Below are positions 13,609 to 54,410 of a stretch of DNA of 64,000 nt, one piece after another. This stretch comes from an uncultured Rhodobacteraceae bacterium (GTDB lineage: Bacteria; Pseudomonadota; Alphaproteobacteria; Rhodobacterales; Rhodobacteraceae), in contig CALBSG010000005.1 of the NCBI GenBank assembly GCA_937927675.1, forward strand, positions 21,727 through 85,726, in the 5' to 3' direction. A program made the translations under genes and the position numbers. The notes beneath the pieces are model-generated. The model ran no database searches. It was not told the origin of the DNA and saw only the letters and a program-made list of their open reading frames with translations. How positions within the stretch are numbered: the first letter of the stretch is position 1; each line of letters opens with the position of its first letter.

Positions 13609-13620
13609 CAGGAGCCTGCG

Positions 13621-36718: not shown

Positions 36719-36730
36719 AGGAGATTAAAC

Positions 36731-38689
36731 ATGTCAGACGATCCTAAACCCGGCCTGTCCCGCCGCGCGCTTCTGGGGGCAACCGCTGGCGGCGCTGCCG
36801 CGGCAGGTGCCTTTGGCGGCGGCCGTTTGGCGCTGACCGGGGGGCTTTTTGGCCTTGGCGGTAGCTTGGCAACAGCGGGAGCCGCACAGGCCGCCACGGC
36901 CGAGGGATTCGAAGTGGCCCCCGGCCAATTGGACACCCATTATGGCTTTTGGTCGTCGGGTCAGACCGGCGAGATGCGCATCCTTGGTATCCCGTCGATG
37001 CGCGAATTGATGCGGGTTCCGGTGTTCAACCGCTGTTCGGCGACTGGCTGGGGGCAAACCGATGAATCGGTGCGCATCCATCAGCGCACGATGACCGAAA
37101 AGACCAAGAAACATCTGGCTGCCAACGGCAAGAAGATCCACGACAACGGCGATTTGCACCACGTTCACATGTCGTTCACCGACGGCAAATATGACGGGCA
37201 ATACCTGTTCATGAATGACAAGGCGAACACCCGCGTCGCCCGTGTGCGCGCTGATGTGATGAAGTGCGACGCCATTCTGGAAGTTCCCAACGCCAAGGCC
37301 ATTCACGGCATGCGGCCGCAGAAATTCCCGAAGACCACCTATGTCTTCTGCAACGGCGAGGATGAGGCCCCGCTGGTCAACGATGGCTCGACCATGAATG
37401 ATGTGTCGACCTATGTGAACATCTTCACCGCCGTCGATGCCGACAAATGGCTGCCGGCTTGGCAGGTGATGGTGTCGGGCAACCTCGACAACTGCGATGC
37501 CGATTACGAAGGCAAATGGGCCTTTTCGACCAGCTACAACTCGGAAATGGGCATGACGCTGGCGGACATGACCGCCGCCGAGATGGACCATGTGGTGATC
37601 TTCAACATCGCCGCGATTGAGGCCGCCGTTGCAGCCGGCGAAGGGCAAGAGTTGAACGGTGTGCAGGTTCTGGATGGCCGCAAGGACGCCAACAGCAACT
37701 TCACCCGCTATATCCCGATCGCCAACAACCCGCATGGTTGCAACATGGCACCGGACAAAAAGCACCTGTGCATCGGCGGCAAGCTGTCGCCCACCGTCAC
37801 CGTGCTGGATGTGACCAAGTTCGACGCGCTGTTTGAAAAGCCCGCTGCCGAGGTTGACCTGCGCAGCCCCGTGGTTGCCGAGCCGGAACTGGGTCTTGGC
37901 CCGTTGCACACCGCCTTTGACGGCAAAGGCAATGCCTATACATCGCTCTTCCTCGACAGTCAGGTGGTGAAGTGGAACATCGAGGACGCGATCAAGGCCT
38001 ATGCCGGCGAAAAGATCGACCCGATCAAGGACAAGCTGGACGTGCAATACCAGCCCGGCCACCTGAAAACCGTGATGGGCGAGACGCTGGAAGCCGAAAG
38101 CAAATGGCTGGTCTGTCTGTGCAAATTCTCGAAAGACCGCTTCTTGAACGTTGGTCCGCTGAAGCCTGAGAACGATCAGCTGATCGACATTTCCGGCGAC
38201 AAGATGGTTGTGGTGCATGACGGCCCGAACTTTGCCGAACCGCACGACGCCATTGCCGTAGCTGCCGCCAAGATGACCAACATCCGTTCGGCATGGGACC
38301 GGCAGGATCCGATGTGGGCAGAAACCCGCAAGCAAGCCGAAGCCGACGGCGTCAATCTGGACGAATGGGCCGACAAGGTTGTGCGCGATGGCAACAAGGT
38401 GCGGGTCTATATGACCAGCCAAGCGCCGTCCTTCAGTCTGGAAAGCTTCACCGTCAAGGAAGGCGACGAGGTCACGGTCATCATCACCAACCTTGATGAC
38501 ATCGACGATCTGACCCACGGCTTCACCATGGGCAACCATGGCGTGGCGATGGAAATCGGGCCGCAGGCGACCAGCTCGATCACCTTCGTTGCGGCCAATG
38601 CCGGGGTTTACTGGTACTATTGCCAGTGGTTCTGCCACGCCCTGCATATGGAGATGCGCGGCCGGATGTTCGTTGAGCCAAAAGCCTGA
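36731..38689 (+). CDS. nosZ: Nitrous-oxide reductase (clade I, Tat-exported)
   Basis: 652 aa. Tat signal '[12 protein letters not shown]', seven-bladed propeller His ligands, CuA motif '[12 protein letters not shown]'. Confidence 0.97.
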
Positions 38690-38692
38690 TCC

Positions 38693-40021
38693 ATGTGGAA
38701 ATCTCTGGCCCCCTTGCTGATTGCTCTTGCCGCGCCGGTTTCGGCGGCGGATGTGGCCGTGCAGCCGGGGGCCGGAAGCCTTGCCAATGCCATCGCCGGG
38801 GCAGCCCCCGGCGATGTGCTGACCCTTTCTGACGGAATTTATGACGGCCCCATCACCATCGACCGCACACTGACCCTAACCGGCACTGCCGGCACGGTGA
38901 TTGACGGCGGACACAAGGGCACGGTTGTCACCATCACCGGCGATGATGTGGTCTTGCGCGGGGTGACCGTGACAGGATCGGGTGGGGTGAACGCCGATCT
39001 CGACTCCGGCATCAAGATTGTGAAAGGCGCCGACCGCAGCCTGATCGAGGGCAACCGGCTGACCGACAATATGCACGGCATTGATGTGCATGGCGGGCTG
39101 GACAGCATCGTGCGCCACAATGTCATCGAAGGCCGCCAGAACGCCCGCATGAACGAGCGCGGCAACGGCATCTACATCTGGAACGCGCCGGGCACCGTGG
39201 TTGAAGAAAACACGGTGCGCTGGGGGCGGGATGGCATCTTCTCCAACGCCTCACGCAAAGGCACCTACCGCAACAACCTGTTCCGCGACCTGCGGTTTGC
39301 GGTGCATTACATGTATACCCACGACAGCGAAGTTTCGGGCAACATCTCGATCGGCAACCATCTGGGCTTTGCCATTATGTATTCCAATCGGGTGATCGTC
39401 GCCGACAACCTGTCCTTGGGTGACCGCGAACATGGGGTCATGCTGAACTATGCCAACAATGCCGAGGTGCATGACAATCTGGTGCGCGGCGGCACGAAGA
39501 AATGCACCTTCATCTATAACGCCCACAAGAACCTGATCTACCGCAACCGCTTTGAAGGCTGTGGCATCGGCATCCATTTTACCGCCGGGTCTGAGCGCAA
39601 TGTGCTGACCGAAAACGCGTTCATCGGAAACCGTGAGCAGGTGAAATATGTCGGCACCAAGCATATCGAATGGAGCTTTGAGGGGCGCGGCAACTTCTGG
39701 TCTGACCATCCAGCCTTTGATCTGAACGGCGATGGCATCGCCGATGCGGTATTCCGCCCCAATGACCTGATGGACCATATCCTGTGGTCGCAACCCGCAG
39801 CCGCCCTTTTGACCGGCGCACCCGCCGTGCAACTGGTGCGTTGGAGCCAAAAGAGCTTTCCCGCCACCCTGCCCGGTGGGGTGTTGGACAGCTTTCCGTT
39901 GATGAGCCCGGTCGACAAGACCGTCCCGCCCGACATTGCCGCGATGGAGGCCGAAGTGGCCGGTCGCTGGGCAACAGGAAATTATGATGACATCGACCCT
40001 GACGATCTCGAATCTCACTAA
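38693..40021 (+). CDS. nosD: NosD periplasmic beta-helix copper-centre maturation protein
   Basis: 442 aa, signal peptide, repeated 'N.I..N..GI' parallel beta-helix repeats. Synteny after nosZ. Confidence 0.92.
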   Translation: MWKSLAPLLIALAAPVSAADVAVQPGAGSLANAIAGAAPGDVLTLSDGIYDGPITIDRTLTLTGTAGTVIDGGHKGTVVTITGDDVVLRGVTVTGSGGVNADLDSGIKIVKGADRSLIEGNRLTDNMHGIDVHGGLDSIVRHNVIEGRQNARMNERGNGIYIWNAPGTVVEENTVRWGRDGIFSNASRKGTYRNNLFRDLRFAVHYMYTHDSEVSGNISIGNHLGFAIMYSNRVIVADNLSLGDREHGVMLNYANNAEVHDNLVRGGTKKCTFIYNAHKNLIYRNRFEGCGIGIHFTAGSERNVLTENAFIGNREQVKYVGTKHIEWSFEGRGNFWSDHPAFDLNGDGIADAVFRPNDLMDHILWSQPAAALLTGAPAVQLVRWSQKSFPATLPGGVLDSFPLMSPVDKTVPPDIAAMEAEVAGRWATGNYDDIDPDDLESH

Positions 40022-40883
40022 GACCTTTGACAGCTTCACCGCGCTGGACGCGGTGTCGTTGTCGGTCGCCCCCGGCGCACGGGTGGCGCTCTTGGGCCAT
40101 AACGGGGCTGGCAAGTCGACGATGATGAAGATCATCCTTGGCCTCATTCCCTATGACAGCGGAGAGGTCACCGTTTGCGGTGCGCAACCGGGATCGGCAC
40201 AGGCGCGGGCGCAGGTGGCCTATCTGCCGGAAAACGCCGCCTTTCACCCCGCGCTGACCGGATTGGAGCAGATTGGGCATTACCTGTCGCTGCGCGGTGA
40301 AAACCCACGTCTGGCGATGGAGTTGTTGGAGCGCGTCGGCCTGCATGGCGCGGCGCGGCGACGGATTGGCACCTATTCCAAAGGGATGCGCCAACGTGTC
40401 GGTCTGGCGCAGGCGCTGATCGGCAAACCGCGGCTTTTGGTGCTGGATGAACCCACCAGTGGGCTTGATCCGGTGTCGCGGCGCGATTTCTACGCGCTTC
40501 TGGATGGGCTGGCGGCCGAGGGCGCCTCAATCCTCTTGTCCAGTCATGCCCTGACCGAGGTGGAGGCGCGGACCGACCGCATCTTGATCCTGTCAGGTGG
40601 GCGCATGGTGGCCAGCGGCAGCTTGGCCGACCTGCGGCAAGGTGCGGCCCTGCCGGTGGCGCTGCATGTCACGGCGCGCAACGGCTATGCCAGCGACATC
40701 GCCGCCGCCCTGCCCGGCGCTATCCGGGTGGACGGCGAATTGCGCCTGACCTGTGCCCAAGAGGACAAGCTGCCACTCTTAGCTCGGATTACAGGGTTTG
40801 GTGACAAAGTGGCCGATATCGAAGTGCTGCCGCCCAGTCTGGAAGATATTTACAGCCATTTCAGCCGGAGGGACGGGCAATGA
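39984..40883 (+). CDS. nosF: NosF ABC ATPase
   Basis: Walker A 'GHNGAGKST', signature 'YSKGMRQR', Walker B 'LLVLDEPTSGLD'. The start at 39984 overlaps the nosD end by 38 nt. Confidence 0.9.
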   Translation: MMTSTLTISNLTKTFDSFTALDAVSLSVAPGARVALLGHNGAGKSTMMKIILGLIPYDSGEVTVCGAQPGSAQARAQVAYLPENAAFHPALTGLEQIGHYLSLRGENPRLAMELLERVGLHGAARRRIGTYSKGMRQRVGLAQALIGKPRLLVLDEPTSGLDPVSRRDFYALLDGLAAEGASILLSSHALTEVEARTDRILILSGGRMVASGSLADLRQGAALPVALHVTARNGYASDIAAALPGAIRVDGELRLTCAQEDKLPLLARITGFGDKVADIEVLPPSLEDIYSHFSRRDGQ

Positions 40884-41704
40884 TGACCCGAATTCTTGCC
40901 ACCGCGGGTACCGAATTTCGCATCGCGCTGCGCAACCGCTGGGTGGCGATTGCGGTGGTGCTGATGGCGCTGTTTTCGCTGGTTTTGTCGGCGGCCGGTT
41001 CTGCGCCGACCGGGGATCTGGGGGTAGATCGGCTCTCGGTCACGGTGGCCTCGCTCACCTCTTTGGCGGTCTATCTGGTGCCACTGGTCGCGCTGTTGAT
41101 GAGCTTTGATGCCATCGCAGGTGAGGTGGAGCGCGGCACGCTGCCCTTGTTGCTGACCTATCCGGTGGGGCGGGTTGAAATCCTGCTCGGCAAGCTCTTG
41201 GCGCATCTGGCCGTGCTGACGCTCGCGGTTGCGGTGGGCTATGGGTTGGCCGCGCTCGCCGCTTTTTGGGCGGACGGCGATGCGCTGTCGGGCCTGCCTG
41301 CACTGCTGCGGTTGACGTGGACCTCGATCCTTTTGGGCGCCACCTTCCTTGGCGCGGGCTATGCGCTGTCGTCGTTGGCGCGGCGGCCCTCTGGGGCGGC
41401 AGGGCTGGCGATGGGGCTGTGGCTGGGGGCGGTGGTGCTTTATGACCTTGGCCTTTTGGCTGCCGTGGTTGCCGACAATGGCGGCTGGTTCACCACCTCG
41501 GTCTTTCCTTTTGCGTTGTTGGCCAATCCGGCCGATGCCTTCCGTCTGTTCAACCTTGCCGCATCTGAGGCGACCGCGGCTGCGGCGGGCGTCGCCGGGG
41601 CCGCAAATTCGATCCCGCTTTGGCAATCGGCCGCTTCGGTTCTGCTTTGGCCACTTCTGGCACTGGCACTGGCCACCGCCGCCTTCCGAAAGGTGTCGCC
41701 ATGA
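40880..41704 (+). CDS. nosY: NosY ABC-2 type permease
   Basis: 274 aa with 6 hydrophobic segments, translationally coupled to nosF and nosL. Confidence 0.9.
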   Translation: MMTRILATAGTEFRIALRNRWVAIAVVLMALFSLVLSAAGSAPTGDLGVDRLSVTVASLTSLAVYLVPLVALLMSFDAIAGEVERGTLPLLLTYPVGRVEILLGKLLAHLAVLTLAVAVGYGLAALAAFWADGDALSGLPALLRLTWTSILLGATFLGAGYALSSLARRPSGAAGLAMGLWLGAVVLYDLGLLAAVVADNGGWFTTSVFPFALLANPADAFRLFNLAASEATAAAAGVAGAANSIPLWQSAASVLLWPLLALALATAAFRKVSP

Positions 41705-42279
41705 AACGCGTTCTGCTTTTGGTTTTGGCCCTTGCCGCGTGCAAAGAGGAAACCCAAGACCTTTCCCCCATTGCTTTGACGCCGGAATCCACCGGGCATT
41801 ACTGCCAGATGAACCTTTTGGAGCACCCCGGCCCCAAGGCACAGGTGCATCTGGAGGGGCTGCCCGGCATGCCGCTGTTCTTTTCTCAGGTCCGGGATGC
41901 CGTGGCCTATGCCCGTCTGCCGGAACAGGATGGCGTGATTTTGGCCACCTATGTCAGTGACATGGGCGCGCCCGGCGCCACATGGGAGGAACCCGGCGCA
42001 ACCAACTGGATCGCTGCCGAATCCGCCACCTATGTGATGGGTTCAAGTGCCGAGGGTGGCATGGGTGCGCCAGAACTGGTGCCCTTTGCCGATCCCGCCG
42101 CCGCGGCCGCCTTTGCCGCCGAAAAGGGGGGGAAAGTGGTGCAACTGGCGCAGGTGCCGGACCGTGAAGTGATCGCCCCCGTGGCGCTGGAAGGCGACAT
42201 CGGGGCCGAGGATGACACGGATTACGACGACCGGCTCAAGGGTCTGTCGCGCAGTCTGAATGACCAGACCGGAGGATGA
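41701..42279 (+). CDS. nosL: NosL copper-chaperone lipoprotein
   Basis: The ATG at 41701 overlaps the nosY stop. Lipobox 'LALAAC'. 'HYCQMNL' motif. Confidence 0.88.
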   Translation: MKRVLLLVLALAACKEETQDLSPIALTPESTGHYCQMNLLEHPGPKAQVHLEGLPGMPLFFSQVRDAVAYARLPEQDGVILATYVSDMGAPGATWEEPGATNWIAAESATYVMGSSAEGGMGAPELVPFADPAAAAAFAAEKGGKVVQLAQVPDREVIAPVALEGDIGAEDDTDYDDRLKGLSRSLNDQTGG

Positions 42280-42280
42280 C

Positions 42281-43195
42281 ATGCTGACGCGTCGCCGCTT
42301 TATGACAATCACCGCCACCGCGCTTGCGCTGGGGGCGACCCGCGCCGGGGCAACCCCGCGGCAGGTCTGGGCAGGCCAAGCCTTGGGCGCGCGCGCCTCG
42401 ATCCGGCTTGACCATCCTGACGCGGCCGCAATTGCCGCCCGCGCCGCGAATGAGATCAGCCGTCTGAGCAGAATCTTCAGCCTTTATGAGCCGACCTCGC
42501 AATTGGTGCAGTTGAACCAGACCGGGCGGCTTGACGGCCCCGCGCCGGAATTGCTGGAATGTCTGACCTTGGCCGGCGCGGTGCATGATGCCTCGGGCGG
42601 GTTGTTCGACCCCACGATACAACCGCTTTGGGCGCTTTGGGCAGAGCGGGTGAGTATGGGCCTCCAACCGACAGCGGCAGAGCTGGCCGAAGCGCGCGGT
42701 AGGGGCGGCTGGTCTGATCTGCGGCTGGACGCTGCGGCGATCACGCTGCGCCCCGGCATGGGCCTGACACTGAACGGCATTGCGCAGGGCTATATCGCCG
42801 ACCGCATCGCCGCTTTGCTAAGTGAAGAGGGTCTGACCAACATCCTGATCGACACTGGCGAGCATCGGGCGCTTGGCCAGATGCCCGAAGGCAGACCTTG
42901 GCCCGTGACCTTGGCGCAAGGCGGCAGCGTCCCGTTGCGAGACCGCGCCTTGGCAACGTCGGCGCCCTTGGGCACTGTTTTTGATGCCGAGGGCCGGTTT
43001 GGCCATATCCTGCACCCCGCAACCGGCGCACCTGCAACGGTGCGCTGGTCAGGGATCAGCATCAGCGCCCCGCGCGCGGGGCTGGCGGATGCGCTGTCAA
43101 CGGCGGCCTGCCTTGCGGCAGACCGAAGGGCGATAGACGCCATCCTTGCGGCCTTTCCAGAGGCCACCTGCCTATCGGCGCGTCAGGCTGCCTGA
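42281..43195 (+). CDS. nosX: NosX / ApbE-family FAD:protein FMN transferase
   Basis: ATG at 42281 after GGAGGA. Tat signal 'TRRRFMTITATALALGA'. ApbE motifs 'LTLNGIAQGY' and 'ILIDTGE'. Confidence 0.88.
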   Translation: MLTRRRFMTITATALALGATRAGATPRQVWAGQALGARASIRLDHPDAAAIAARAANEISRLSRIFSLYEPTSQLVQLNQTGRLDGPAPELLECLTLAGAVHDASGGLFDPTIQPLWALWAERVSMGLQPTAAELAEARGRGGWSDLRLDAAAITLRPGMGLTLNGIAQGYIADRIAALLSEEGLTNILIDTGEHRALGQMPEGRPWPVTLAQGGSVPLRDRALATSAPLGTVFDAEGRFGHILHPATGAPATVRWSGISISAPRAGLADALSTAACLAADRRAIDAILAAFPEATCLSARQAA

Positions 43196-43199: not shown

Positions 43200-44198
43200 T
43201 TAAAGCAGGCTGGCAAGCCGAACGGGCGCGCCGGTTTTGGCCGATTGGGTTGCGGCTTCGGCCATGGCCAAGGCGGCGACGCCATCGGCCAAGGTCACCG
43301 GCAAGGCGGAACCCGAATTGACGGCCTGCACAAAGGCCGCCCATTCTGCCGCATAGGCGGGCATGTAGCGTTCAAGGAAGAAATAGGTGGGCTTCGCACC
43401 GGTCACACCGGCCGTCGTCGATTTCACGACGGTATTTTCCAGCATGTTCTGCGCCTGCAAGAGCCCTTCCGAGCCCAAAAGCTCCAGTCGCTGGTCATAG
43501 CCGTAGACCGCGCGGCGCGAATTCTTGATGACCGCGATGCGCCCGTCGGCATAGGTCAGCGTCACCACGGCAGTATCCACATCGCCCGCCGCCCCGATCT
43601 CTGGATCGACGATGGAGGTGCCGACAGCTGACACCGTAACGGGGGCCGCGCCCATGATGAAATTGGCCATGTCAAAGTCGTGGATCATCATGTCGCGGAA
43701 CAGACCACCCGACACCTTGATATAGGCGACCGGCGGCGGCGCGGGGTCGAAAGAGGTGATCGACAGAAGCTCGGTCTTGCCAATCTCGCCTTTGTCGGCG
43801 GCGGCTTTCAGGGCGGCAAAGTTCGGGTCAAACCGGCGGTTGAAGCCGATCATCACAGGTTTGCCGTTCTGCGCGACGGCCTTTTGGCAGGCTTGCGCAC
43901 GGGCCAGCGACAGATCCACCGGCTTTTCGCACAGCACCGCCTTGCCCGCCGCCGTTGCCCGTTCGATCAGGTCGGAATGGGTGTCGGTCGAGGTGGCGAT
44001 CAGGACCGCGTCAATCGTGGGGTCGGACAGGATAGCGTCGGTGGCCCGCGCTTCGGCCCCGTATTGCGCGGCAAGTTTGGCAGCCGCTTCGGTGTTGATG
44101 TCACTGACCGCAACAAGGCGCGATCCGGGGTTGGTGGAAATGGCGGTGGCATGCACGCCCGCAATGCGGCCTGCGCCAAGAAGTCCGACGTTCAGCAT
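43200..44198 (-). CDS. Gfo/Idh/MocA family dehydrogenase (inositol 2-dehydrogenase-like)
   Basis: 332 aa. 'VGLLGAGRIAGVHA' Rossmann fold, 'VLCEKPV' and 'GFNRRFDP' family motifs. Confidence 0.85.
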   Translation of the reverse strand: MLNVGLLGAGRIAGVHATAISTNPGSRLVAVSDINTEAAAKLAAQYGAEARATDAILSDPTIDAVLIATSTDTHSDLIERATAAGKAVLCEKPVDLSLARAQACQKAVAQNGKPVMIGFNRRFDPNFAALKAAADKGEIGKTELLSITSFDPAPPPVAYIKVSGGLFRDMMIHDFDMANFIMGAAPVTVSAVGTSIVDPEIGAAGDVDTAVVTLTYADGRIAVIKNSRRAVYGYDQRLELLGSEGLLQAQNMLENTVVKSTTAGVTGAKPTYFFLERYMPAYAAEWAAFVQAVNSGSALPVTLADGVAALAMAEAATQSAKTGAPVRLASLL

Positions 44199-44212: not shown

Positions 44213-45022
44213 TTATTGGCCGAGAGCGGCCTTGAAGGTGGAAAATTCATCATCGCTCATCGCGACGTTGTGGCGAGGTTCGGGATAGGCGGCGCTGTCA
44301 ACATCGCTGCGGAATTCGCGGAAGGCGGCGATGCGTTCGGCCTGCAACCGGGCGAATTCGGCGGCGAAATTGCGATAGGTCTTGGCATGGCGCGGTTTGT
44401 GGCCATCGGTGCAGCCCAGCACATCTTCGGCAAACAGATATTGCGCATCGGCACCGGGGCCAGCCCCCATGCCCAACATCAGCATCGGAGTATTGGCACT
44501 GATGAAGGCACCCAATTGGTCCGGCACACATTCCAATTCGGCCCCGAAGGCGCCGATGGCTTCCAGCGTTTTGACATGGTCCCAGACCACGCGGGCCTCG
44601 GTCGCGGTTTTGCCGACAGCGCGCCATCCAGTCCAGGTGATGTAACTGGGGATCAACCCGACATGGGCCACGATCGGCACATGGTTGTCACAAAGGGTCT
44701 TCTGGATGTCGAGCGACGCCGCGCAGTAAAAGCAGTCGCCCCCCATGGCCGTAAAGTGAAAGGCGGCGCGCAGGTAATCTTCGGCGGTCGCCAGCTTGCC
44801 GTAAGGACCATAGGGCAGACCGACCTGCACAAAGCAGTTGCCAGCCGCCTCACGCATTTCTGGGCTGAAAAAGCGCCCCTCAATCGACAGCATATGAATG
44901 CCCGCCGCATCGGCCGCCGCCGCTTCGTCCAGCGTGGTGACGTAAAGCATCGAAATCTTTTGCCCGCGCGCCTTCATGGCGCGCATATCATGGACAGAGG
45001 GGCGAGCGTTCTTGTGGACCAT
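44213..45022 (-). CDS. PanB-like (3-methyl-2-oxobutanoate hydroxymethyltransferase family) enzyme, copy A
   Basis: 269 aa. 'HVGLIPSYITWTGWRAVGKT', 'ELECVP' and 'GMGAGPGADAQYLF' parallel the PanB active-site regions. Embedded in a catabolic operon, not a pan operon. Confidence 0.75.
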   Translation of the reverse strand: MVHKNARPSVHDMRAMKARGQKISMLYVTTLDEAAAADAAGIHMLSIEGRFFSPEMREAAGNCFVQVGLPYGPYGKLATAEDYLRAAFHFTAMGGDCFYCAASLDIQKTLCDNHVPIVAHVGLIPSYITWTGWRAVGKTATEARVVWDHVKTLEAIGAFGAELECVPDQLGAFISANTPMLMLGMGAGPGADAQYLFAEDVLGCTDGHKPRHAKTYRNFAAEFARLQAERIAAFREFRSDVDSAAYPEPRHNVAMSDDEFSTFKAALGQ

Positions 45023-45024: not shown

Positions 45025-45798
45025 TTACACCGTGAAGGCCGTGCGGAAGGCTTCAAGGGCAGCCTCCTCATCGCCCTTGGCGAAGGCTTCCATGCCGACG
45101 GGGCCGCTGTAGCCCATGCCCTTCAAGGCGCGGGCAACGCCGGCATAGTTGATCTCGCCGGTTCCCGGTTCGCAGCGACCGGGGTTGTCCGCAACCTGCA
45201 CTTCGCCGATCCACGGCAGGCAGGCCTCGGTCCAGCGGATCAGGTCACCCTCGCCGATCTGGGTGTGGTAAAGGTCCAGATTGATGCGCAACTCGGGCCG
45301 GTTCACCGACGATACCAACGCCAACACATCGGCGGTCGCACCAAAGGGGCAGCCGGGATGGTCGATCGGGTTCAGGTTTTCCAGCGTGAATTGAACACCC
45401 TCCGACGCAGCCAGATCGCAAATCCGGTGCAGGGTATCGCGGGCGCGGGTCACCATGCCGGGGGCAAATGACCCGATCTGCGGGATCGGCACGCCCATGT
45501 CGCCCAACCCCGTGCCATGCAGATTCAGCCGCTGCACGCCCAGACGCTTGCCGACCTGAACCGTCTCACGCGCCGAGGCGAGCAGCATGTCGGCCCCTTC
45601 GGCATCGGTCAGGCGACCCTGAAGATAGCCGTTCATGATGGTAAAGGTTGCCCCGGTCTTCACCAGCGCATCCACATCCCAAGCGGGCCAGTTCCACAGG
45701 CCAACGCCAAAGCCCATTTCTTTCAGGCGCGCGGCGCGCCAATCCATTGGGCGGTCGCGCCACAGCATTTCGGCGCAGGCGGCAAGTTGAAAGCTCAT
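45025..45798 (-). CDS. Hydroxypyruvate-isomerase-like TIM-barrel protein
   Basis: 257 aa from the ATG at 45798 (MSFQLAACAEMLW). 'LNLHGTG', 'FTLENLN', 'INLDLYHTQI', 'GEVQVAD' are xylose-isomerase-fold metal motifs. Confidence 0.8.
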   Translation of the reverse strand: MSFQLAACAEMLWRDRPMDWRAARLKEMGFGVGLWNWPAWDVDALVKTGATFTIMNGYLQGRLTDAEGADMLLASARETVQVGKRLGVQRLNLHGTGLGDMGVPIPQIGSFAPGMVTRARDTLHRICDLAASEGVQFTLENLNPIDHPGCPFGATADVLALVSSVNRPELRINLDLYHTQIGEGDLIRWTEACLPWIGEVQVADNPGRCEPGTGEINYAGVARALKGMGYSGPVGMEAFAKGDEEAALEAFRTAFTV

Positions 45799-45799: not shown

Positions 45800-46111
45800 T
45801 CAGATCTCGATGTAAACCGCACCGTCTTCCACTTTTACGGGAAAGGTGCGGAGGTTGACGCAGGCGGGCGCGCGTTTGGCCTCGCCGGTTTTGTAGCAGA
45901 AGGTGGCGTTGTGCTTGGGACATTCGACAGTGCCGTCCATCACGAGACCATCGCAGAGATGCACCTTTTCATGGCTGCAAATGCCGTCCATGGCGTGGAA
46001 GGTGTCATCCTCTGAGCGTACGATGATGAAGGTCTGGCTCCCGTGGTCAAAGCGGATCAGGTCATCCAGTTCGATGTCGTCCGGGGCGCAGGCGCGTATC
46101 CAGTTGGGCAT
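45800..46111 (-). CDS. Rieske [2Fe-2S] ferredoxin (MocE-like), copy A
   Basis: 103 aa. 'CSHEKVHLCDG...ECPKHN' = CxH...CxxH Rieske ligands. ~60% identical by eye to the 57630 copy. Confidence 0.88.
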   Translation of the reverse strand: MPNWIRACAPDDIELDDLIRFDHGSQTFIIVRSEDDTFHAMDGICSHEKVHLCDGLVMDGTVECPKHNATFCYKTGEAKRAPACVNLRTFPVKVEDGAVYIEI

Positions 46112-46125: not shown

Positions 46126-46944
46126 TTATGCAGCAGGGGGAGGCGGGTGGCCGTTGTGGCTGGCCATGTACCCTTCGATTTCGGCTTCAAGGCTGGCCAT
46201 CGAGGCACCGCCCGCCATCAGGTCGGTGATCTCTTCGCGGGTCTTTTCGCCCTTTTTGAAATCCGCCGCGACGGCGCCGCGGATCAACACGGCAAAATGG
46301 TCGCCCACCGCCATGGCATGCATCACCTGATGGGTGATGAAGATCACAGCCAGACCCCGGCGCTTGGCCTCGTTCACGATGCGCAAAACGTGTGTCGCCT
46401 GTTTGACGCCCAAAGCGGCCGTCGGTTCATCCAAAATCAGCACCCGCGCCCCGAAATGCACCGCGCGGGCAATGGCGAGCGATTGCCGCTCCCCGCCTGA
46501 CAGCCCGCCGACCAGACGGTCGCCGTCGGTGATCCGGGTAATGCCCATGTCCTGCACGGCCTTTACCGCAATCGCATTGGCGCGTTTCCGGTCATAGACC
46601 CGGAACGGCCCCCAGCCCTTGGTCGGCTCAACGCCGACGAAAAAGCTGCGCCCGATGGACATCAGGGGAAAGGTGCCGCCGAACTGGTGAACGGTGGAGA
46701 TGCCTGCCTCGGCCGCCACGCGGGGCGTGGGGAAGCTGACGGGTTGGCCATCCATCTCGATCACGCCGCTGGAAGGCTGATGCACCCCCGACATGATCTT
46801 GATGAGGGTCGATTTCCCCGCGCCATTGTCACCCAGAAGGCAGAGCACTTCGCCGGGCTTCACCTCCAAGGTGATGTCATGCAGCACATCAATCGGACCA
46901 AAGGATTTGTTCACACCCCGCAGGGCCAGGATCGGGGCGGTCAT
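46126..46944 (-). CDS. Sugar-type ABC transporter ATPase (single ABC domain)
   Basis: Walker A 'GDNGAGKST', signature 'LSGGERQS', Walker B 'VLILDEPTAAL'. Confidence 0.9.
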   Translation of the reverse strand: MTAPILALRGVNKSFGPIDVLHDITLEVKPGEVLCLLGDNGAGKSTLIKIMSGVHQPSSGVIEMDGQPVSFPTPRVAAEAGISTVHQFGGTFPLMSIGRSFFVGVEPTKGWGPFRVYDRKRANAIAVKAVQDMGITRITDGDRLVGGLSGGERQSLAIARAVHFGARVLILDEPTAALGVKQATHVLRIVNEAKRRGLAVIFITHQVMHAMAVGDHFAVLIRGAVAADFKKGEKTREEITDLMAGGASMASLEAEIEGYMASHNGHPPPPAA

Positions 46945-47951
46945 GCTTTGGCGCCTTTCTTCTTGGTTGTGGCCGACAGCGCCATCTTGCGGAAGGTGTT
47001 GTTCATCAAAACGGCACCCAACAGCAGGACACCGATGATGAGCGAGGACCAGTTCCGATCAAAATCGGTGTAGTAGATGCCTTGGGTCACGATGGCGAAG
47101 GTGATGGTGCCAAAGAAGATGCCGACAACCGACCCAAAACCCCCTGTCAGCAAGACCCCCCCGACCACGACCGAGATGATGGCGTTGAAGATGAACGATT
47201 GCCCACCGGCAACCTGGGCCGAGTTGTAAAGGATCGCCTGCGACATGCCGACAAAAGCAGCAGAGGTGGCCGACAAGACGAACAGGATGATGGTCAGCCG
47301 GTCCGTCGGAATTCCGGCATTGCGCGCCGAAACCTTGTCGCCGCCCATGGCAAAAATCCAGTTTCCGAAGGGCGAGAAGTGGACAAAGAAGATGTAAAGC
47401 GCAGTCAGTCCCAGCCACCACAGGGCCATGACCTGCAACTGCCCCCCAAAGAGGAAATCGCCGAACATCGCCTTGGCCGGGCCTTCCACACTCAACGCGA
47501 CAGAGGTGGATTTGGTGATAAGGACCGTCAGGCCCAGCACGACACCTTGCACCGCAAACAGGCTGCCCAGCGTCACGATCAGCGAGGGAACGGCGGTTTT
47601 CACCACAAGGATGCCATTCACCAGCCCAACGATCACACCAAAGGACAGGGCCATCGCGACGCCCAGCCAGATCGGCATATCGTAATGGCCCGAGACCACA
47701 GCGACGGTCATCGCGCCAAAGGGCACCATGGCACCCACGGAAATATCAAGTTCGCCGGCAATCATCAAAAGACCCAGCGGGATAGCGATCACCCCCAAGT
47801 TCGCCGCGACATTCAGCCAGCTGGCCATGCCTGCGGGTTTCAGAAAGGTAACCCCGCCGAAGAAGGCGAAGAAGATCAGGACGGCAATCAGGCCAAGGGC
47901 GGCCCCGGCTTCGGGGCGGCGCAAGAGGCCACCTAAGGAAGTGCTGGACAT
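46941..47951 (-). CDS. Sugar-type ABC transporter permease (RbsC/FrcC-like)
   Basis: 336 aa with ~9-10 TM segments. Stop overlaps the ATPase start. Confidence 0.88.
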   Translation of the reverse strand: MSSTSLGGLLRRPEAGAALGLIAVLIFFAFFGGVTFLKPAGMASWLNVAANLGVIAIPLGLLMIAGELDISVGAMVPFGAMTVAVVSGHYDMPIWLGVAMALSFGVIVGLVNGILVVKTAVPSLIVTLGSLFAVQGVVLGLTVLITKSTSVALSVEGPAKAMFGDFLFGGQLQVMALWWLGLTALYIFFVHFSPFGNWIFAMGGDKVSARNAGIPTDRLTIILFVLSATSAAFVGMSQAILYNSAQVAGGQSFIFNAIISVVVGGVLLTGGFGSVVGIFFGTITFAIVTQGIYYTDFDRNWSSLIIGVLLLGAVLMNNTFRKMALSATTKKKGAKA

Positions 47952-47975
47952 GGGTCAGCCCCGTATCATGTGAGG

Positions 47976-48010
47976 AAAAAAGGAGGGGACCAGCGGCAAA
48001 GCCGGTCCCC
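47976..48010 (-). terminator. Intercistronic hairpin/attenuator after the SBP gene
   Basis: On the minus strand: GGGGACC-ggctttgccgct-GGTCCCC followed by TCCTTTTTTCC. Confidence 0.6.
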
Positions 48011-48018
48011 GATCAGGT

Positions 48019-48990
48019 TTAGCGCGCGCCGAGCTTTACGCCCGCAAGCGTGGCGTCGATGTTGGACGCATCTACGATCCCCGGGCCCGTCAGGACCGGG
48101 AAGACCGGCAAGTCGGTGCCAAAGTCGATGCTCGAGGCCAGAAGGCTGACGGCAAGATAGGATTGCAGATAGGGCTGCTGGTCGATGGCAAAGGCTTGGG
48201 TGCCCGCCTTGATCCGATCAAGCCCAGCCTGGTTCATGTCGAACGACCCCAGTTTCGTCGCCCCGGTCTTGCCAGCCTGCTCGACGGCAATCGCGGCGCT
48301 GTCGGCGTCGCCTGCCGAGATGGTGATGACACCGTCAATGGTCTCATCTTTCAGCAGTTCCGCCTTGATCGCTTCGGCCACGGCCGTCGCATCGCCGAAA
48401 GAGGTCGACGGCAGCGGCAGTTGCGCGCCCTTGCCACCCTTGCCGGTGACGCCATCGATCACGCCTTTGCAGCGCGCTTCGATGTTGGCGGTGCCGGGCA
48501 GGGTGTTGATGCACAACACGTTCTTTTGGCCAGCGCCGGCGAAATATTCGCCGCCCGCAACACCGGCGACATATTCATCCGAGCCGACATAGTTGATGGC
48601 GCCCAGTTCAGTGGCTTTGTCCGCGCCGCCTGCGTTCATCAAGATCACCTTGATGCCGGCCGCCATCGCGTCTTTGATCGCCGGATCTTCCGCCTCGGGC
48701 ACCCAGTTCGGGATCACCAGACCGTCAACTTCCATGGAAATGGCGGTGCGGATCAGCTGCACAACGTCGGGCGCGAAGTTGTCGTAGTTTACCAGACGCA
48801 GATAAGTCACAGTGCCGCCATTGGCCTCGACCGCCGGGGTGGCATCGTCGATGCCCTTCTTGATGATGTTCCAAAAGGCGTCATCGTTCGACCCGCCGAC
48901 CACCGCGATATCTGCCGCCATTGCGGCCGAACCTGCGGCGACCAGTGCTGTCGTTGCCAGTGCTTTGGCCATGGATTTCAGAAATGCCAT
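48019..48990 (-). CDS. Periplasmic sugar/polyol-binding protein (RbsB/MocB-like), module A
   Basis: ATG at 48990 after GGGAGGA. Signal 'ALVAAGSAAMA/ADI'. Periplasmic binding protein type I pattern. Confidence 0.85.
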   Translation of the reverse strand: MAFLKSMAKALATTALVAAGSAAMAADIAVVGGSNDDAFWNIIKKGIDDATPAVEANGGTVTYLRLVNYDNFAPDVVQLIRTAISMEVDGLVIPNWVPEAEDPAIKDAMAAGIKVILMNAGGADKATELGAINYVGSDEYVAGVAGGEYFAGAGQKNVLCINTLPGTANIEARCKGVIDGVTGKGGKGAQLPLPSTSFGDATAVAEAIKAELLKDETIDGVITISAGDADSAAIAVEQAGKTGATKLGSFDMNQAGLDRIKAGTQAFAIDQQPYLQSYLAVSLLASSIDFGTDLPVFPVLTGPGIVDASNIDATLAGVKLGAR

Positions 48991-49091: not shown

Positions 49092-50105
49092 TCAAGCGCT
49101 GGATTTTGCGTTCATCCGGGCTTTCTTCTTTTCAAAACGCGCATTCATCCGCGCGTCGCCTTCTTTCGAGCCATCGTGCCAGTAGCCGAACCACTTATCC
49201 AAAGGGATCAACCCGTCGCCGCCGTAGTTCACCTCGAAGTATTTGTGATGCAGGTAGTGGGCGTAGGCATGGCTATCGAGCGTGCGGTCCTCGGTCAGTT
49301 CCAGCTTGTCAAAACCGATGTGCCCATTCACCGCGCCAAATCCTGCAAGGTGCAGCTGGAACATCGCCACAATCGGGTTTGACGGGATCACAAGGTGCCA
49401 AAGCGCTACGGCGTGATAGAGGAACCCTTCCACCGGATGCATCGAAAGCGACGACCACGGCGATGGGTTGACCGAGTTGTGGTGGACCGAATGGATCCAC
49501 TTATAGAGGATCGGCACATGGATCAGCCGGTGGATCAGGAAGAAATGCACCTCATGGATGGCCGGGCAAAGCAGCGTCAGCACAACCAGCCACAGCCAAT
49601 TGTCCGACCATGAAAGCCACGGCACATAACCCGAGGCAAAAGCATGCAGAAAGATCACCTGCACCAGCGTCCACAGCGGGATCGAGATGAAGAAAGATCG
49701 CAGGAAGTTGTCGATGTTCTGGCTTTTGAACCAGAACACGTCAGATGGCTGCTCGGCCGGGAATTTCCCGTTGTATTTGAACCGCGAGCCCTGCTTTTTC
49801 TTCACATACCAGAACAGTTCAATTGCGCCGTAAAAGACAAAGATCGCTGCGGCATTGACTGCGTATAGCCACAGCGCCCAGCCCCAGCTCAGGGTTTTCA
49901 GAACCTCGACATCGGGAACCACATAGGCCCACCACAGAAGCGCTGTTGCCATGTGAAAGGCGTTCCACGGCCAGAGATATTCCGGAATCCATGCCAGAAC
50001 CTTGGGCAGGCTCAACGGTTTTTGCCAAAACGGCGGCAGGGACAGATGGGCAAACGGGGCCCAGTCACCGCGCTTGTTGCGGGTTCCGAACTTGAGATCA
50101 TCCAT
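49092..50105 (-). CDS. Fatty-acid-hydroxylase/sterol-desaturase superfamily membrane di-iron oxygenase
   Basis: ATG at 50105 after AGGAGG. His boxes 'HEVHFFLIHRLIH', 'HSVHH', 'HYLHHKY'. Several TM segments. Confidence 0.85.
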   Translation of the reverse strand: MDDLKFGTRNKRGDWAPFAHLSLPPFWQKPLSLPKVLAWIPEYLWPWNAFHMATALLWWAYVVPDVEVLKTLSWGWALWLYAVNAAAIFVFYGAIELFWYVKKKQGSRFKYNGKFPAEQPSDVFWFKSQNIDNFLRSFFISIPLWTLVQVIFLHAFASGYVPWLSWSDNWLWLVVLTLLCPAIHEVHFFLIHRLIHVPILYKWIHSVHHNSVNPSPWSSLSMHPVEGFLYHAVALWHLVIPSNPIVAMFQLHLAGFGAVNGHIGFDKLELTEDRTLDSHAYAHYLHHKYFEVNYGGDGLIPLDKWFGYWHDGSKEGDARMNARFEKKKARMNAKSSA

Positions 50106-50377: not shown

Positions 50378-51400
50378 ATGCACCGCCCCACCATCCCCGA
50401 CCTTGCCAAAACCGCAGGCGTCTCGGTCGCCACTGTAAACCGCGTCCTGTCCGGGGCGGCCAATGTCCGGCTGGCAACGCGAGAGCGGGTTCAAAAGGCG
50501 GCCGAGGAAATCGGTTTTTACGGCGTGGGCAGCATCCAAGCCCGCGTTGCGGCGGCCCGTCCGCGCCTACGCTTTGGGGTCTTGTTGCTGCAACCCCATC
50601 GCCCCTTTTATCAAAACGTCGCGCAGGCGTTGGAAGACGCCGCCGCCAATGCCGTGGGGGCTGACATTGATCTGCGCGTTGAATTTCTTGAAGATCTCTC
50701 GCCCCAGAATGTGGCCAACCGTGCCCTTGATCTGGCGGAAACCTGCAATGCCATCTGCGTGACCTCTGCCGTGCACCCGGTCGTCACCGAAGCACTGGAG
50801 CAAATTCAGGCACGGGGGATTCCGGTGTTCGCCCTGATCTCGCAGATTTCGGTGACGGGGCAGATGTCTTACGTCGGCCTCGACAACTGGAAAGTCGGCC
50901 GCACCTCCGGCTGGGCCTTTGCACACATCTGCAAGAAACCGGGCAAGATCGGCATCCTGATGGGCAACCCGCGCTATCGGAATCAGGAAATGAACGAGAC
51001 AGGCTTTCGGTCATTCTTCCGCGAATGCGCGCCGGATTTCACCCTGCTGGAACCGATCACCACCTTCGAATCAGCCGCCGTTGCGCAGGAGTTGACGGAA
51101 AAGCTGCTGGCCGAGCACCCCGACCTTGCCGGACTTTACATCTCGGGCGGTGGCATCAGCGGGGCGCTTGCCGCACTGCGCGCCACAGGAAGGGCCGGGT
51201 CGCTGGTGGTGGTCGGCTATGATTTGACCGACGTCACCCGTGCCGCCCTGCTGGACGGCACGATGACGCTGCTGCTGTCGCACCCGCTGGCACGGCTTGC
51301 CCGCGACGCGATTGATGGAATGATTCGCGCCTGCGGTAACCCGAGCAGCAATCAAACCAGCATCGCCCCGTTTGAAATCTACACCCGCGAAAACATCTGA
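50378..51400 (+). CDS. LacI family transcriptional regulator (module A)
   Basis: N-terminal HTH 'TIPDLAKTAGVSVATVNRVLSG' plus a periplasmic-binding-fold effector domain. Confidence 0.9.
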   Translation: MHRPTIPDLAKTAGVSVATVNRVLSGAANVRLATRERVQKAAEEIGFYGVGSIQARVAAARPRLRFGVLLLQPHRPFYQNVAQALEDAAANAVGADIDLRVEFLEDLSPQNVANRALDLAETCNAICVTSAVHPVVTEALEQIQARGIPVFALISQISVTGQMSYVGLDNWKVGRTSGWAFAHICKKPGKIGILMGNPRYRNQEMNETGFRSFFRECAPDFTLLEPITTFESAAVAQELTEKLLAEHPDLAGLYISGGGISGALAALRATGRAGSLVVVGYDLTDVTRAALLDGTMTLLLSHPLARLARDAIDGMIRACGNPSSNQTSIAPFEIYTRENI

Positions 51401-52178: not shown

Positions 52179-52183
52179 GGCCG

Positions 52184-53296: not shown

Positions 53297-53321
53297 CCGC
53301 TTGCCTTCACCCAAATCGACC

Positions 53322-53350
53322 AAAAGGCCCGGCCATGGGAGAGGCCGGGC
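53322..53350 (-). terminator. Intercistronic hairpin/attenuator after the SBP gene
   Basis: On the minus strand: GCCCGGCC-tctcccat-GGCCGGGC followed by TTTTGG. Confidence 0.6.
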
Positions 53351-53389
53351 AAGGGGGCGGCAGCACCGCCCGGATGACTGATCTTCAGA

Positions 53390-54331: not shown

Positions 54332-54410
54332 GTCTCTCTCCCTTGTTGGATGCCGGCTCATCCGTTCTGTTGGCCGGGGGCTCTCTCCCAGAGCCCGCAT
54401 CACACACAGA

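Follow-up and report, generated by a model that had tools for sequence, protein, structure and literature searches.

The PanB reaction is a hydroxymethyl transfer with 5,10-methylene-tetrahydrofolate (methylene-THF), and canonical PanB is, to our knowledge, the only relative of the proteins described here with a known reaction. MocDEF is an oxygenase system proposed for the catabolism of the rhizopine 3-O-methyl-scyllo-inosamine in Sinorhizobium and Rhizobium. In heterotetrameric sarcosine oxidase and in dimethylglycine and sarcosine dehydrogenases, a methyl group is oxidized and the C1 unit is caught on THF and not freed as formaldehyde; the genes of such THF-coupled oxidative demethylases often cluster with purU and folD. 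Here, we compare with these systems two gene modules, A and B, each encoding a PanB-like protein, which are located in a 64-kb stretch of DNA (the window).

A sequence-only reading had placed one PanB-family protein in each module. Both open reading frames were recovered at the same coordinates (Table 1), and their products match the Pfam family Pantoate_transf with 116 bits for protein A and 118 bits for protein B (cut-off, 28.7; E value, 1e-33). The two proteins are 41% identical to each other. Against the panB equivalog model TIGR00222, they scored 79.9 (A) and 85.5 bits (B) at a cut-off of 207.55, and against NF001452 they scored 104.5 and 104.9 bits at a cut-off of 272. The AlphaFold model of A (pLDDT, 93.8) has the PanB fold: in a Foldseek search, the top matches among solved structures were all PanB (3vav, 1m3u, 1o68, and 1oy0), and ranks 29 to 50 belonged to the ICL/PEP-mutase (ICL/PEPM) superfamily. 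The possibility had been raised that such copies form a clade of their own, and this is what the phylogeny revealed: PanB-like proteins and canonical PanB, which share 21 to 34% identity, were separated in 97 of 100 bootstraps. A and B are PanB-family proteins, not vitamin B5 enzymes, and represent a widespread, misannotated sister family.

Next to this separation stands a loss of active-site residues. We aligned 33 PanB-like sequences with three canonical PanB sequences (E. coli, Marinovum, and Rhizobium; E. coli numbering). Residues D45, D84, K112, and E114 were missing from all 33 PanB-like proteins and present in all three canonical ones. We take D45, D84, and E114 to be the Mg2+ ligands and K112 to be the anchor of the 2-oxoacid carboxylate in PanB. 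The PanB-like family has lost the D45/S46 loop and E114, and carries G or A in place of D84 and Y in place of K112; the four positions read G, G, Y, gap in A and P, G, Y, gap in B. Alignments with PDB structures gave the same losses for both proteins. The equivalents of H136 and E181 were invariant in all 36 aligned sequences. Invariant throughout the PanB-like family are H119, E161, E163, GxG 185-187, D199, and R210-H211, of which E161 and R210-H211, along with the motif TWxGGxRAVGKT, are specific to it. In the AlphaFold model, the invariant residues map to the C-terminal tips of the barrel strands or close to them, or to the loop that follows strand 8. The family as a whole keeps the residues that face the active site, the counterparts of E181 and H136 among them; this argues for catalysis, and judging from the model the PanB-like proteins are likely still enzymes.

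It is hardly credible that A and B are ordinary or spare panB genes serving pantothenate synthesis, as they are now annotated. PGAP and JGI do call such genes 3-methyl-2-oxobutanoate hydroxymethyltransferase, and A has, in its predicted structure, the PanB fold. Against this stand the scores far under the equivalog cut-offs, the missing metal and substrate residues, and the lack of linkage to panC, panD, and panE (PanC is encoded near a PanB-like gene in just 1 of 80 loci, L037). Genetic data point the same way. The sequence-only reading had held that complementation of a panB auxotroph would mark the genes as ordinary panB, and the R. etli homologue RHE_PE00443 neither supports nor complements pantothenate synthesis: in R. 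etli, a panB mutant stays auxotrophic although it has this gene, also when the gene is expressed constitutively (PMC3082293). RHE_PE00443 belongs to the same subclade as A and B and is 52 to 55% identical to them (54.6% for B). A canonical panB next to panC had also been suggested as a thing to look for, and in related species (Marinovum algicola and Rhizobium) such separate panB-panC pairs coexist with the PanB-like genes. The PanB annotation is almost certainly wrong for the PanB-like clade, and it is carried by thousands of database entries named PanB, to which PGAP adds a pantothenate GO term.

Table 1. Genes of modules A and B and their divergent regulators and arms in the 64-kb window
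Feature	Position	Strand	Family or score
IolG, inositol 2-dehydrogenase (last gene of module A operon)	43200-44198	-	TIGR04380 equivalog, 430 bits (cut-off 355)
PanB-like protein A, 269 aa	44213-45022	-	Non-canonical PF02548 member
TIM barrel, xylose-isomerase-like (AP_endonuc_2)	45025-45798	-	PF01261
MocE-family Rieske [2Fe-2S] ferredoxin, module A	45800-46111	-	TIGR02377, 154 bits (cut-off 136.15)
ABC transporter, module A, whole	46126-48990	-	Pfam
ABC ATPase, module A	46126-46944	-	
ABC permease, module A	46941-47951	-	
ABC binding protein (SBP), module A	48019-48990	-	
Membrane di-iron oxygenase, module A, 337 aa	49092-50105	-	FA_hydroxylase/sterol desaturase family, PF04116
LacI-family regulator, divergent from module A operon	50378-51400	+	PF00356 and PF13407
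Module B divergent arm, whole	51414-56542	-	Pfam
Sugar ABC ATPase, module B arm	51414-52178	-	
Sugar ABC permease, module B arm	52184-53221	-	
Sugar ABC binding protein, module B arm	53390-54331	-	
TIM barrel, module B arm	54411-55229	-	
LacI regulator, module B arm (ORF)	55358-56542	-	
Membrane di-iron oxygenase, module B (start codon uncertain)	56484-57626	+	FA_desaturase, MocD-like; PF00487, 133 bits
MocE-family Rieske ferredoxin, module B	57630-57941	+	TIGR02377, 162 bits (cut-off 136.15)
PanB-like protein B, 265 aa	57943-58740	+	PF02548

Module A, for which the Pfam annotation was taken from the identical contig L001, reads in the order FA_hydroxylase, SBP, permease, ATPase, Rieske ferredoxin, TIM barrel, PanB-like protein, and IolG. 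The oxygenase contains the histidine boxes HRLIH, HSVHH, and HAYAHYLHH along with hydrophobic segments, the CxH...CxxH motif of the ferredoxin is complete, and IolG has GFO_IDH_MocA domains. The TIM barrel, whose C-terminal part weakly resembles hydroxypyruvate isomerase, 2-oxo-tetronate isomerase, and IolO, is probably an IolI-like isomerase or epimerase of keto-cyclitols. The top NCBIfam match of the SBP is the rhizopine binding protein NF052284 with 158 bits; because this is under the 420-bit equivalog cut-off, rhizopine is probably not the substrate. The divergent orientation of the LacI regulator is kept in related loci.

The gene context of module B was established by Pfam scans. Its oxygenase (histidine boxes HECSH, HTRHH, and HVEHH) is 71% identical to the MocD-like protein of R. 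etli p42e. The genes follow each other as FA_desaturase, Rieske ferredoxin, and PanB-like protein with gaps of only 3 nt and then 1 nt, in agreement with the earlier claim that PanB-like protein B is encoded in one operon with the oxygenase/ferredoxin pair. In related rhizobial loci, a LacI and TIM-barrel pair repeatedly adjoins mocDEF-like genes (PMC3538637). The 64-kb window contains no homologue of purU, folD, the MocF reductase, or PanC.

Whether the association with an oxygenase is conserved was addressed by a genome scan using an alignment of eight PanB-like sequences as a query. Neighborhoods were counted in 60 genome loci for which 6 kb or more of sequence upstream was available. A MocE-like Rieske ferredoxin was encoded in 50 of these loci, in 43 of them directly upstream and on the same strand. 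The di-iron oxygenase was likewise present in 50/60 loci, and the two occurred together in 48/60, bearing out the co-occurrence that the sequence-only reading had put forward for checking. MocF was found in 18/60 loci, and IolE in some. Type B operons, with the layout FAdes-MocE-(MocF)-PanBlike, contain no dehydrogenase. Pairs of oxygenase and PanB-like genes recur: the window has two of them, L062 has two of the FAhyd-PanBlike kind, and L162 has five MocD-like genes alongside three PanB-like ones. A crude comparison of PanB-like subtype with oxygenase type gave no clean pattern. Seven loci with neither oxygenase nor Rieske ferredoxin were inspected; purU is adjacent in L087, a GFO dehydrogenase and a TIM barrel are encoded in L070, and LacI, a TIM barrel, and purU in L038, the others being uninformative.

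Searches with the two copies returned 4581 and 2979 relatives, and such loci occur in Paracoccaceae, Rhizobium, Mesorhizobium, Labrys, Comamonadaceae, Chloroflexi, and Actinomycetota, among other taxa. Legume symbionts have the modules most often: 183 Rhizobium and 91 Sinorhizobium plasmids gave a match. The operon is also present in R. etli CFN42 and in S. meliloti 1021, where the PanB-like gene follows SM_b20820. The PanB-like family is not uniform, because a distant marine branch has different neighbors (DUF1907, an ApbA-like reductase, and an HpcH aldolase). Apparent fusions (P0244, P0330, P0344, P0282, and P0329) were rejected as a tandem duplicate, frameshift-like products, or uninformative extensions, and no fusion with a Rieske protein was among them.

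Genes of folate C1 metabolism join these loci. A purU gene, identified by TIGR00655 with 311 to 333 bits at a cut-off of 286, was present in 12/60 loci, and folD in five, namely four of the 60-locus set plus L055, a short contig; often the genes share one operon. The gene order is FAhyd-MocE-TIM-PanBlike-IolG-PurU-FolD-MocF in L052, PanBlike-FolD-PurU in L057, and PanBlike-PurU-MocE-MocF in L050. In all, purU and in some loci folD are found beside or in the operon of the PanB-like gene in several independent lineages. We know of no other family encoded within these operons than PanB that uses methylene-THF. The transfer of a C1 unit to THF, which had been conjectured from the window, gains support from this linkage.

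On the balance of this evidence, which we regard as about even, the two modules would catabolize methylated cyclitols, most likely O-methyl-inositols, D-pinitol or ononitol for example, and the PanB-like protein would pass the C1 unit to THF. That THF is used, what kind of methyl group is oxidized, and which substrate carries it are our inferences. In the first step of the proposed mechanism, the membrane di-iron oxygenase, of the FA_hydroxylase type in module A and of the MocD/FA_desaturase type in module B, would hydroxylate the methyl group with electrons from the MocE-family Rieske ferredoxin, the reductase being encoded elsewhere. The PanB-like protein, in which the PanB barrel and the H136/E181 pair are kept and the Mg2+ and 2-oxoacid site is lost, would then move the resulting hydroxymethyl or formaldehyde unit onto THF, yielding 5,10-methylene-THF. 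By analogy, it might play the part of the THF-binding sites in sarcosine oxidase and dimethylglycine dehydrogenase. Finally, IolG and the IolI-like TIM barrel could turn the freed inositol into scyllo-inosose for the general iol pathway. IolG and an IolI-like barrel bring D-chiro-inositol to scyllo-inosose in B. subtilis, and O-methyl-inositols like pinitol and ononitol are the main soluble carbohydrates of many legumes and conifers. O-methyl-inositols are favored as substrates by IolG, the IolI-like barrel, the rhizopine-like SBP, the homology to MocDE(F), and the abundance in rhizobia. Homologues of mocDEF in R. mesoamericanum were switched on by a root exudate whose chief component was pinitol (PMC5789663). 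It speaks against the proposal that purU, folD, and a MocF-like reductase are all absent from the window and that purU is found in only about one fifth of the related loci; the spontaneous condensation of formaldehyde with THF and the non-uniformity of the family also count against it. In the literature on the function of the PanB-like family, we found no biochemical or genetic test and, apart from the R. etli study, nothing relevant.

The PanB-like protein might instead act without folate, which we consider doubtful. It could be an accessory, substrate-presenting subunit that lets the membrane oxygenase reach a water-soluble cyclitol, or it could catalyze another reaction of a keto-cyclitol, such as isomerization, aldol cleavage, or hydrolysis. 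PurU and FolD would then just handle formaldehyde reacting spontaneously with THF. Formaldehyde and THF do condense spontaneously, and because of this a dedicated enzyme for the step is not strictly needed. A role without folate fits the loss of half of the canonical catalytic core and the absence of purU and folD from most loci, the window included; moreover, the C-C chemistry of the ICL/PEPM superfamily, of which PanB is a member, is diverse, and the distant branch, with DUF1907, an HpcH aldolase, and an ApbA-like reductase as neighbors, hints at keto-acid chemistry in part of the family. However, the invariance of the residues that face the active site, the counterparts of E181 and H136 among them, argues for catalysis, and every other member of the ICL/PEPM superfamily known to us uses for its C-C chemistry the metal site that is missing here. 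In addition, the sole known chemistry of the family uses methylene-THF, and folate C1 genes have joined the operons in independent lineages.

The sequence-only reading had offered, as speculation, a different course, in which the oxygenase hydroxylates the C-methyl group of a cyclitol (laminitol or mytilitol, for example), a dehydrogenase, here IolG, creates the adjacent carbonyl, and the PanB-like enzyme, running in reverse, removes the CH2OH branch as methylene-THF by retro-aldol cleavage. This would give each enzyme of module A a necessary role and would account for the strict retention of the PanB-like protein with the oxygenase and for the recurring pairs, and the purU/folD linkage is equally compatible with it. 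The FA_hydroxylase/FA_desaturase relatives ERG25, XylM, and AlkB also hydroxylate C-methyl groups. C-methyl cyclitols are of algal and invertebrate origin, and we know of none from legumes, whereas the modules are commonest in legume symbionts, where O-methyl-inositols dominate. The ferredoxin and oxygenase are of the MocE/MocD type, proposed to act on the O-methyl group of an inosamine, and type B operons lack the dehydrogenase that would make the carbonyl. PanB requires its metal for enolization of the 2-oxo substrate (PMC7770189), and all metal ligands (D45, D84, and E114) and the carboxylate-binding lysine (K112) are lost; because the metal site is gone, enolate chemistry by the PanB-like protein is disfavored. 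We found no direct support for this course and judge it improbable. Equally improbable is its variant in which the C-hydroxymethyl branch goes to THF by a metal-independent retro-aldol reaction, which, if true, would be an undescribed pathway for debranching C-methyl cyclitols and a new catalytic solution in the PanB fold.

If, as we prefer, the MocDE-type oxygenase and the PanB-like protein form an O-methyl-inositol demethylase, a gap in rhizosphere carbon metabolism would be filled. In the literature found, no bacterial O-demethylase for O-methyl-inositols of the pinitol and ononitol kind is described, and one bacterial isolate was concluded to need none (PMC9788770). The PanB fold would gain a second function, and the system would be the first known coupling of a membrane di-iron oxygenase to folate, with the C1 unit conserved and free formaldehyde avoided.

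Among known systems, canonical PanB (EC 2.1.2.11; 1M3U, 1OY0, and 3VAV) belongs to the same Pfam family as A and B and folds into the same TIM barrel; A and B retain counterparts of E181 and H136, as well as the C-terminal helices and the GxGxG loop that follows strand 7. Unlike canonical PanB, the PanB-like proteins lack the Mg2+ and carboxylate residues, are not linked to pan genes, and form a separate clade. With MocDEF, the modules share MocE-family ferredoxins above the curated cut-off, and module B also has the MocD-like FA_desaturase oxygenase with its three histidine boxes; the inositol-pathway context and the rhizopine-like binding protein of the window add to the likeness, and rhizobial homologues of module B carry the mocDEF annotation. 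In contrast to MocDEF, the window has no MocF reductase, and the oxygenase of module A is of the FA_hydroxylase family. Rhizopine-specific components (the MocB equivalog, MocR, MocA, and MocC) were not recovered, the binding protein scoring under the rhizopine cut-off and the regulators in the window being LacI-type and not MocR-type. Plasmid searches with the binding protein and the supplement of PMC10107442 yielded no locus annotated as rhizopine, and in the searchable literature no PanB-like gene is mentioned together with mocDEF.

LigM, DmdA, and Fae resemble the proposed system in that the C1 unit of a catabolic methyl group or of formaldehyde is moved onto a pterin cofactor. LigM and DmdA, however, transfer the methyl group directly and without oxygen, the cofactor of Fae is tetrahydromethanopterin, and none of the three has a PanB fold. 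The THF-coupled oxidative demethylases follow the same proposed logic, and the purU/folD linkage is seen in a minority of PanB-like loci but not in the window. These demethylases, which are flavoproteins, carry a GcvT-like folate domain and have N-methyl substrates, whereas here a membrane di-iron oxygenase would be the oxidant and a separate protein with the PanB fold the putative folate component.

Both PanB-like open reading frames, A and B, are present and belong to the PanB family, as the sequence-only reading had proposed. Their PF02548 matches (see the table) are confined to the C-terminal two thirds of the profile, and the two proteins share 41% identity. AlphaFold modeled A with high confidence (pLDDT, 93.8). 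The top solved structures matching this model were all PanB (3VAV, 1M3U, 1O68, and 1OY0; 22-25% identity), followed by other barrels of the isocitrate-lyase/PEP-mutase superfamily. Gene content was taken from precomputed Pfam matches on identical metagenome contigs and from Pfam and NCBIfam scans. Module A is a single minus-strand operon. In module B, the order is oxygenase, MocE ferredoxin, PanB-like B, with intergenic gaps of 3 nt and 1 nt, confirming the suggested operon with the oxygenase/ferredoxin pair. The histidine boxes are complete in the two oxygenases, which also have hydrophobic segments, and both ferredoxins carry the CxH...CxxH motif. The closest match of the module A binding protein was a rhizopine binding protein, with a score under the cut-off. 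Canonical PanB, PanC, PurU, FolD, MetF, GcvT, and a MocF-like reductase were not found within the 64-kb window.

Features of the modules and their surroundings (window positions)
Feature	Position	Strand	Match or remark
FrmA homologue, S-(hydroxymethyl)glutathione dehydrogenase	5238-6518	+	58% identity to E. coli FrmA
Small separate cluster	17066-21004	-	
FAD-dependent oxidoreductase, small cluster	17066-18211	-	
ORF, small cluster	18208-19209	-	no Pfam match
AP_endonuc_2 TIM barrel, small cluster	19206-20036	-	third TIM barrel in window
ORF, small cluster	20033-21004	-	no Pfam match
PhyR-type anti-anti-sigma response regulator	30361-31251	-	general stress response
HWE/HisKA_2 histidine kinase	32103-33857	+	general stress response
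Nitrous-oxide reductase cluster, complete	34055-43195	+	nosR, nosZ, nosD, nosF, nosY, nosL, apbE/nosX
IolG, module A	43200-44198	-	TIGR04380, 430 bits (cut-off 355)
PanB-like A, 269 aa	44213-45022	-	PF02548 (Pantoate_transf), 116 bits
Xylose-isomerase-like TIM barrel, module A	45025-45798	-	
MocE-family Rieske ferredoxin, module A	45800-46111	-	TIGR02377, 154 bits (cut-off 136)
ABC binding protein, permease, ATPase, module A	46126-48990	-	
FA_hydroxylase-family di-iron oxygenase, module A	49092-50105	-	
LacI regulator	50378-51400		divergent from module A operon
LacI regulator, second TIM barrel, sugar ABC transporter	51414-56542		divergent arm of module B
FA_desaturase-family (MocD-like) oxygenase, module B	56484-57626	+	
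MocE-family ferredoxin, module B	57630-57941	+	TIGR02377, 162 bits
PanB-like B, 265 aa	57943-58740	+	PF02548 (Pantoate_transf), 118 bits
dTDP-rhamnose genes	58923-62294	+	rmlC, rmlB, rmlD, rmlA

The nos cluster directly adjoins module A and is not related to the modules; the rml genes after PanB-like B also appear unrelated. The host is a freshwater bacterium of the Paracoccaceae, near Cypionkella, Tabrizicola, and Gemmobacter. Given the FrmA homologue, it also has the glutathione pathway for handling formaldehyde; the window lacks an FrmB homologue.

A and B scored far below the cut-offs of both curated panB models (80 and 85 bits versus 207.55 for TIGR00222; 105 bits each versus 272 for NF001452). 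An alignment was made of 33 PanB-like sequences and three canonical PanB proteins, from E. coli, Marinovum algicola pMaD1, and Rhizobium sp. N731; in the latter two, panB adjoins panC. Residues D45, S46, D84, K112, E114, H136, and E181 (E. coli numbering) are present in all three canonical proteins. Among the 33, A and B lack the D45/S46 segment, as do most clade members; D84 is replaced by G or A in all but one, K112 is changed to Y and kept in only one, and E114 is absent throughout, whereas H136 and E181 are invariant. Alignments with PDB sequences gave the same losses. In canonical PanB, enolisation of the 2-oxoacid requires metal (PMC7770189); judged from the alignment, the half of the active site that serves this metal-dependent step is gone from the PanB-like proteins.

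The family has invariants of its own: E161, E163, G185, G187, D199, P209, and H211 (protein A numbering). R210 is shared by 90% or more of the sequences, and the closer relatives also conserve Y98 and the motif TWxGGxRAVGKT. In the AlphaFold model of A, the strand-borne invariants lie at the C-terminal ends of the barrel strands. Together, these residues and their predicted positions argue for putative enzymes with a changed substrate rather than decayed copies. The separate clade that the sequence-only reading had asked about was recovered: a neighbor-joining tree split canonical from PanB-like proteins in 97 of 100 bootstraps and grouped A and B with R. etli RHE_PE00443 and an S. meliloti pSymB protein in a single subclade. 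When plasmids were searched by tblastn, PanB-like matches had at least 35% identity over the full length, versus at most ~33% for canonical panB matches, which were mostly partial (exception, 36% over a 104-residue fragment). A panC homologue lay near a PanB-like gene in only 1 of 80 related loci (L037, Labrys okinawensis; 13248-14006, ~2.4 kb downstream), with no canonical panB beside it. One 542-aa representative protein (P0244), an apparent fusion, consists of two near-identical PanB-like units in tandem and probably arose through an error of assembly or gene calling.

R. etli CFN42 provides an experimental precedent. Its plasmid p42e encodes a second "MOHMT", RHE_PE00443, in which just 5 of the 12 active-site residues are kept and no metal site could be detected; the panB mutant requires pantothenate even though it carries this gene, and constitutive expression of the gene did not complement it (Villasenor et al., PMC3082293). 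We matched the p42e gene to RHE_PE00443 as the sole PanB-family annotation seen in that part (271 aa versus the published 270). Its product shares 54.6% identity with B and 51.5% with A, and the gene closes an operon with an FA_desaturase, a MocE ferredoxin, and an FAD-dependent ferredoxin reductase, divergent from LacI and TIM-barrel genes. The failed complementation, a test that the sequence-only reading had set for itself, indicates that the window copies are not spare panB genes. RefSeq (L089, L090, L091) names the clade 3-methyl-2-oxobutanoate hydroxymethyltransferase, with the GO term pantothenate biosynthesis. This naming conflicts with the R. etli experiment, and the clade is systematically mis-annotated.

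The pairing with Rieske and di-iron genes recurred in other genomes, as the sequence-only reading required. A one-genome-per-species scan gave at least 547 relatives. The best 80 loci were analyzed by tblastn with the window proteins, and neighborhoods were counted in the 60 that have 6 kb or more of sequence upstream of the PanB-like gene. A MocE-like ferredoxin was near this gene in 50 of the 60 (immediately upstream on the same strand in 43), a di-iron oxygenase of either type in 50 (FA_hydroxylase, 34; FA_desaturase, 18), both together in 48, and neither in 7; 18 loci had a MocF-like reductase. Hosts include Paracoccaceae, Rhizobium, Mesorhizobium, Labrys, Comamonadaceae, Ardenticatenaceae, Anaerolineales, and Actinomycetota. 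The operon is also present on S. meliloti 1021 pSymB, where SM_b20817-20820 are annotated LacI, mocD, mocE, and mocF (PMC11387232). Sullivan et al. described LacI (FixV-like) and TIM-barrel genes beside rhizobial mocDEF clusters and suggested a role in inositol-derivative catabolism (PMC3538637).

On Gemmobacter fulvus plasmid p3 (L091; NZ_CP076364.1, 34-45 kb), the nine-gene module A lies between IS110 and IS5 transposases, showing that it behaves as a self-contained unit (85.8-88.5% protein identity to the window for two proteins checked). This plasmid is mobilisable and encodes a type IV secretion system as well. The pairing of oxygenase and PanB-like genes is repeated: the window has two pairs, L062 has two adjacent FA_hydroxylase/PanB-like pairs, and a 20-kb stretch of a marine metagenome contig (L162, 20.8 kb) has three PanB-like genes and five genes for MocD-like oxygenases. 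The latter also has MocE, MocF, and ABC transporter genes and looks like an array of paired modules. Since a general formaldehyde scavenger would need no duplication, the pairing suggests that the PanB-like protein recognises a particular substrate or a particular oxygenase.

The main support for the core of the sequence-only reading, C1 transfer to tetrahydrofolate (THF), is the linkage to purU and folD, combined with the fact that, of the proteins in these operons, the PanB family alone is, to our knowledge, known to handle methylene-THF. FolD and PurU convert methylene-THF to formate and free THF, and they typically cluster with pathways loading C1 onto THF. purU (formyl-THF deformylase) was found in 12 of the 60 loci (TIGR00655, 311-333 bits; cut-off, 286); by chance, it would be expected in ~1% of 20-kb windows, given one or two purU per genome. 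folD occurred in five loci (four of the 60 and the short contig L055), and the genes often share the operon. Examples are FAhyd-MocE-TIM-PanBlike-IolG-PurU-FolD-MocF in a Comamonadaceae locus (L052), PanBlike-FolD-PurU in Mesorhizobium (L057), PanBlike-PurU-MocE-MocF (L050), and MocF, PurU and/or FolD after IolG in Rhizobium and Mesorhizobium (L019, L022, L026); purU is a divergent neighbor in L087, L056, and L078. Counting against the proposal, purU and folD are missing from the window and from most of the 60 loci, and formaldehyde and THF condense spontaneously.

The earlier proposal, in which the PanB-like enzyme removes a C-methyl branch of a cyclitol by retro-aldol cleavage, is chemically attractive, but the enolisation machinery is lost, type B operons have no dehydrogenase, and the ecology of C-methyl cyclitols speaks against it. 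The sequence-only reading is partly supported, in that the separate clade, the co-occurrence, the non-pantothenate role, and a folate link stand; C-methyl debranching is the less likely version of the chemistry. The evidence favours O-methyl-inositols as substrates, and the below-cut-off rhizopine match of the module A binding protein is one part of it. D-chiro-inositol is the demethylation product of pinitol, and in the B. subtilis iol pathway, IolG and an IolI-type barrel are needed for its conversion to scyllo-inosose; by analogy, IolG and the IolI-like TIM barrel of module A would perform the same conversion. The window has MocE-family ferredoxins and, in module B, a MocD-like oxygenase; for that system, the published model, credited to Bahar et al. 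(1998), is that the O-methyl group is taken off 3-O-methyl-scyllo-inosamine. The modules abound on rhizobial plasmids in the tblastn search, and in R. mesoamericanum, Mimosa exudate with pinitol as its main component induced mocDEF homologues 1.5- to 2.1-fold (PMC5789663). No description of a bacterial O-methyl-inositol demethylase was found in the literature searched, and the authors of a study of pinitol-degrading Erwinia concluded that a demethylase is not needed there (PMC9788770).

Within the family, a distant low-GC branch of marine origin occurs in two contexts: ~23 loci beside MocD-like oxygenases and ~24 (including L109, L112, L115, L133, L134, and L168-L170) with the order small conserved upstream ORF, DUF1907, PanB-like gene. 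The small ORF is without a Pfam match and MarR-like by eye only; nearby are an HpcH/HpaI aldolase, an ApbA/PanE-like reductase, and PhyH-type dioxygenases. An aldehyde dehydrogenase and an IolD-like enzyme, both assigned by eye, are also found there. This split indicates that the family probably has more than one function.

No assigned function for the family was found in the literature searched. Its sequences and gene neighborhoods identify it as a PanB-fold family with a predicted changed active site, putatively recruited as a core part of MocDE-type methyl-oxidising systems. The oxygenase would hydroxylate a methyl group of the substrate, and the PanB-like protein may then hand the hydroxymethyl unit, as a hemiacetal or nascent formaldehyde, to THF. 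Such a step would resemble the capture of C1 on THF by sarcosine oxidase and dimethylglycine dehydrogenase.
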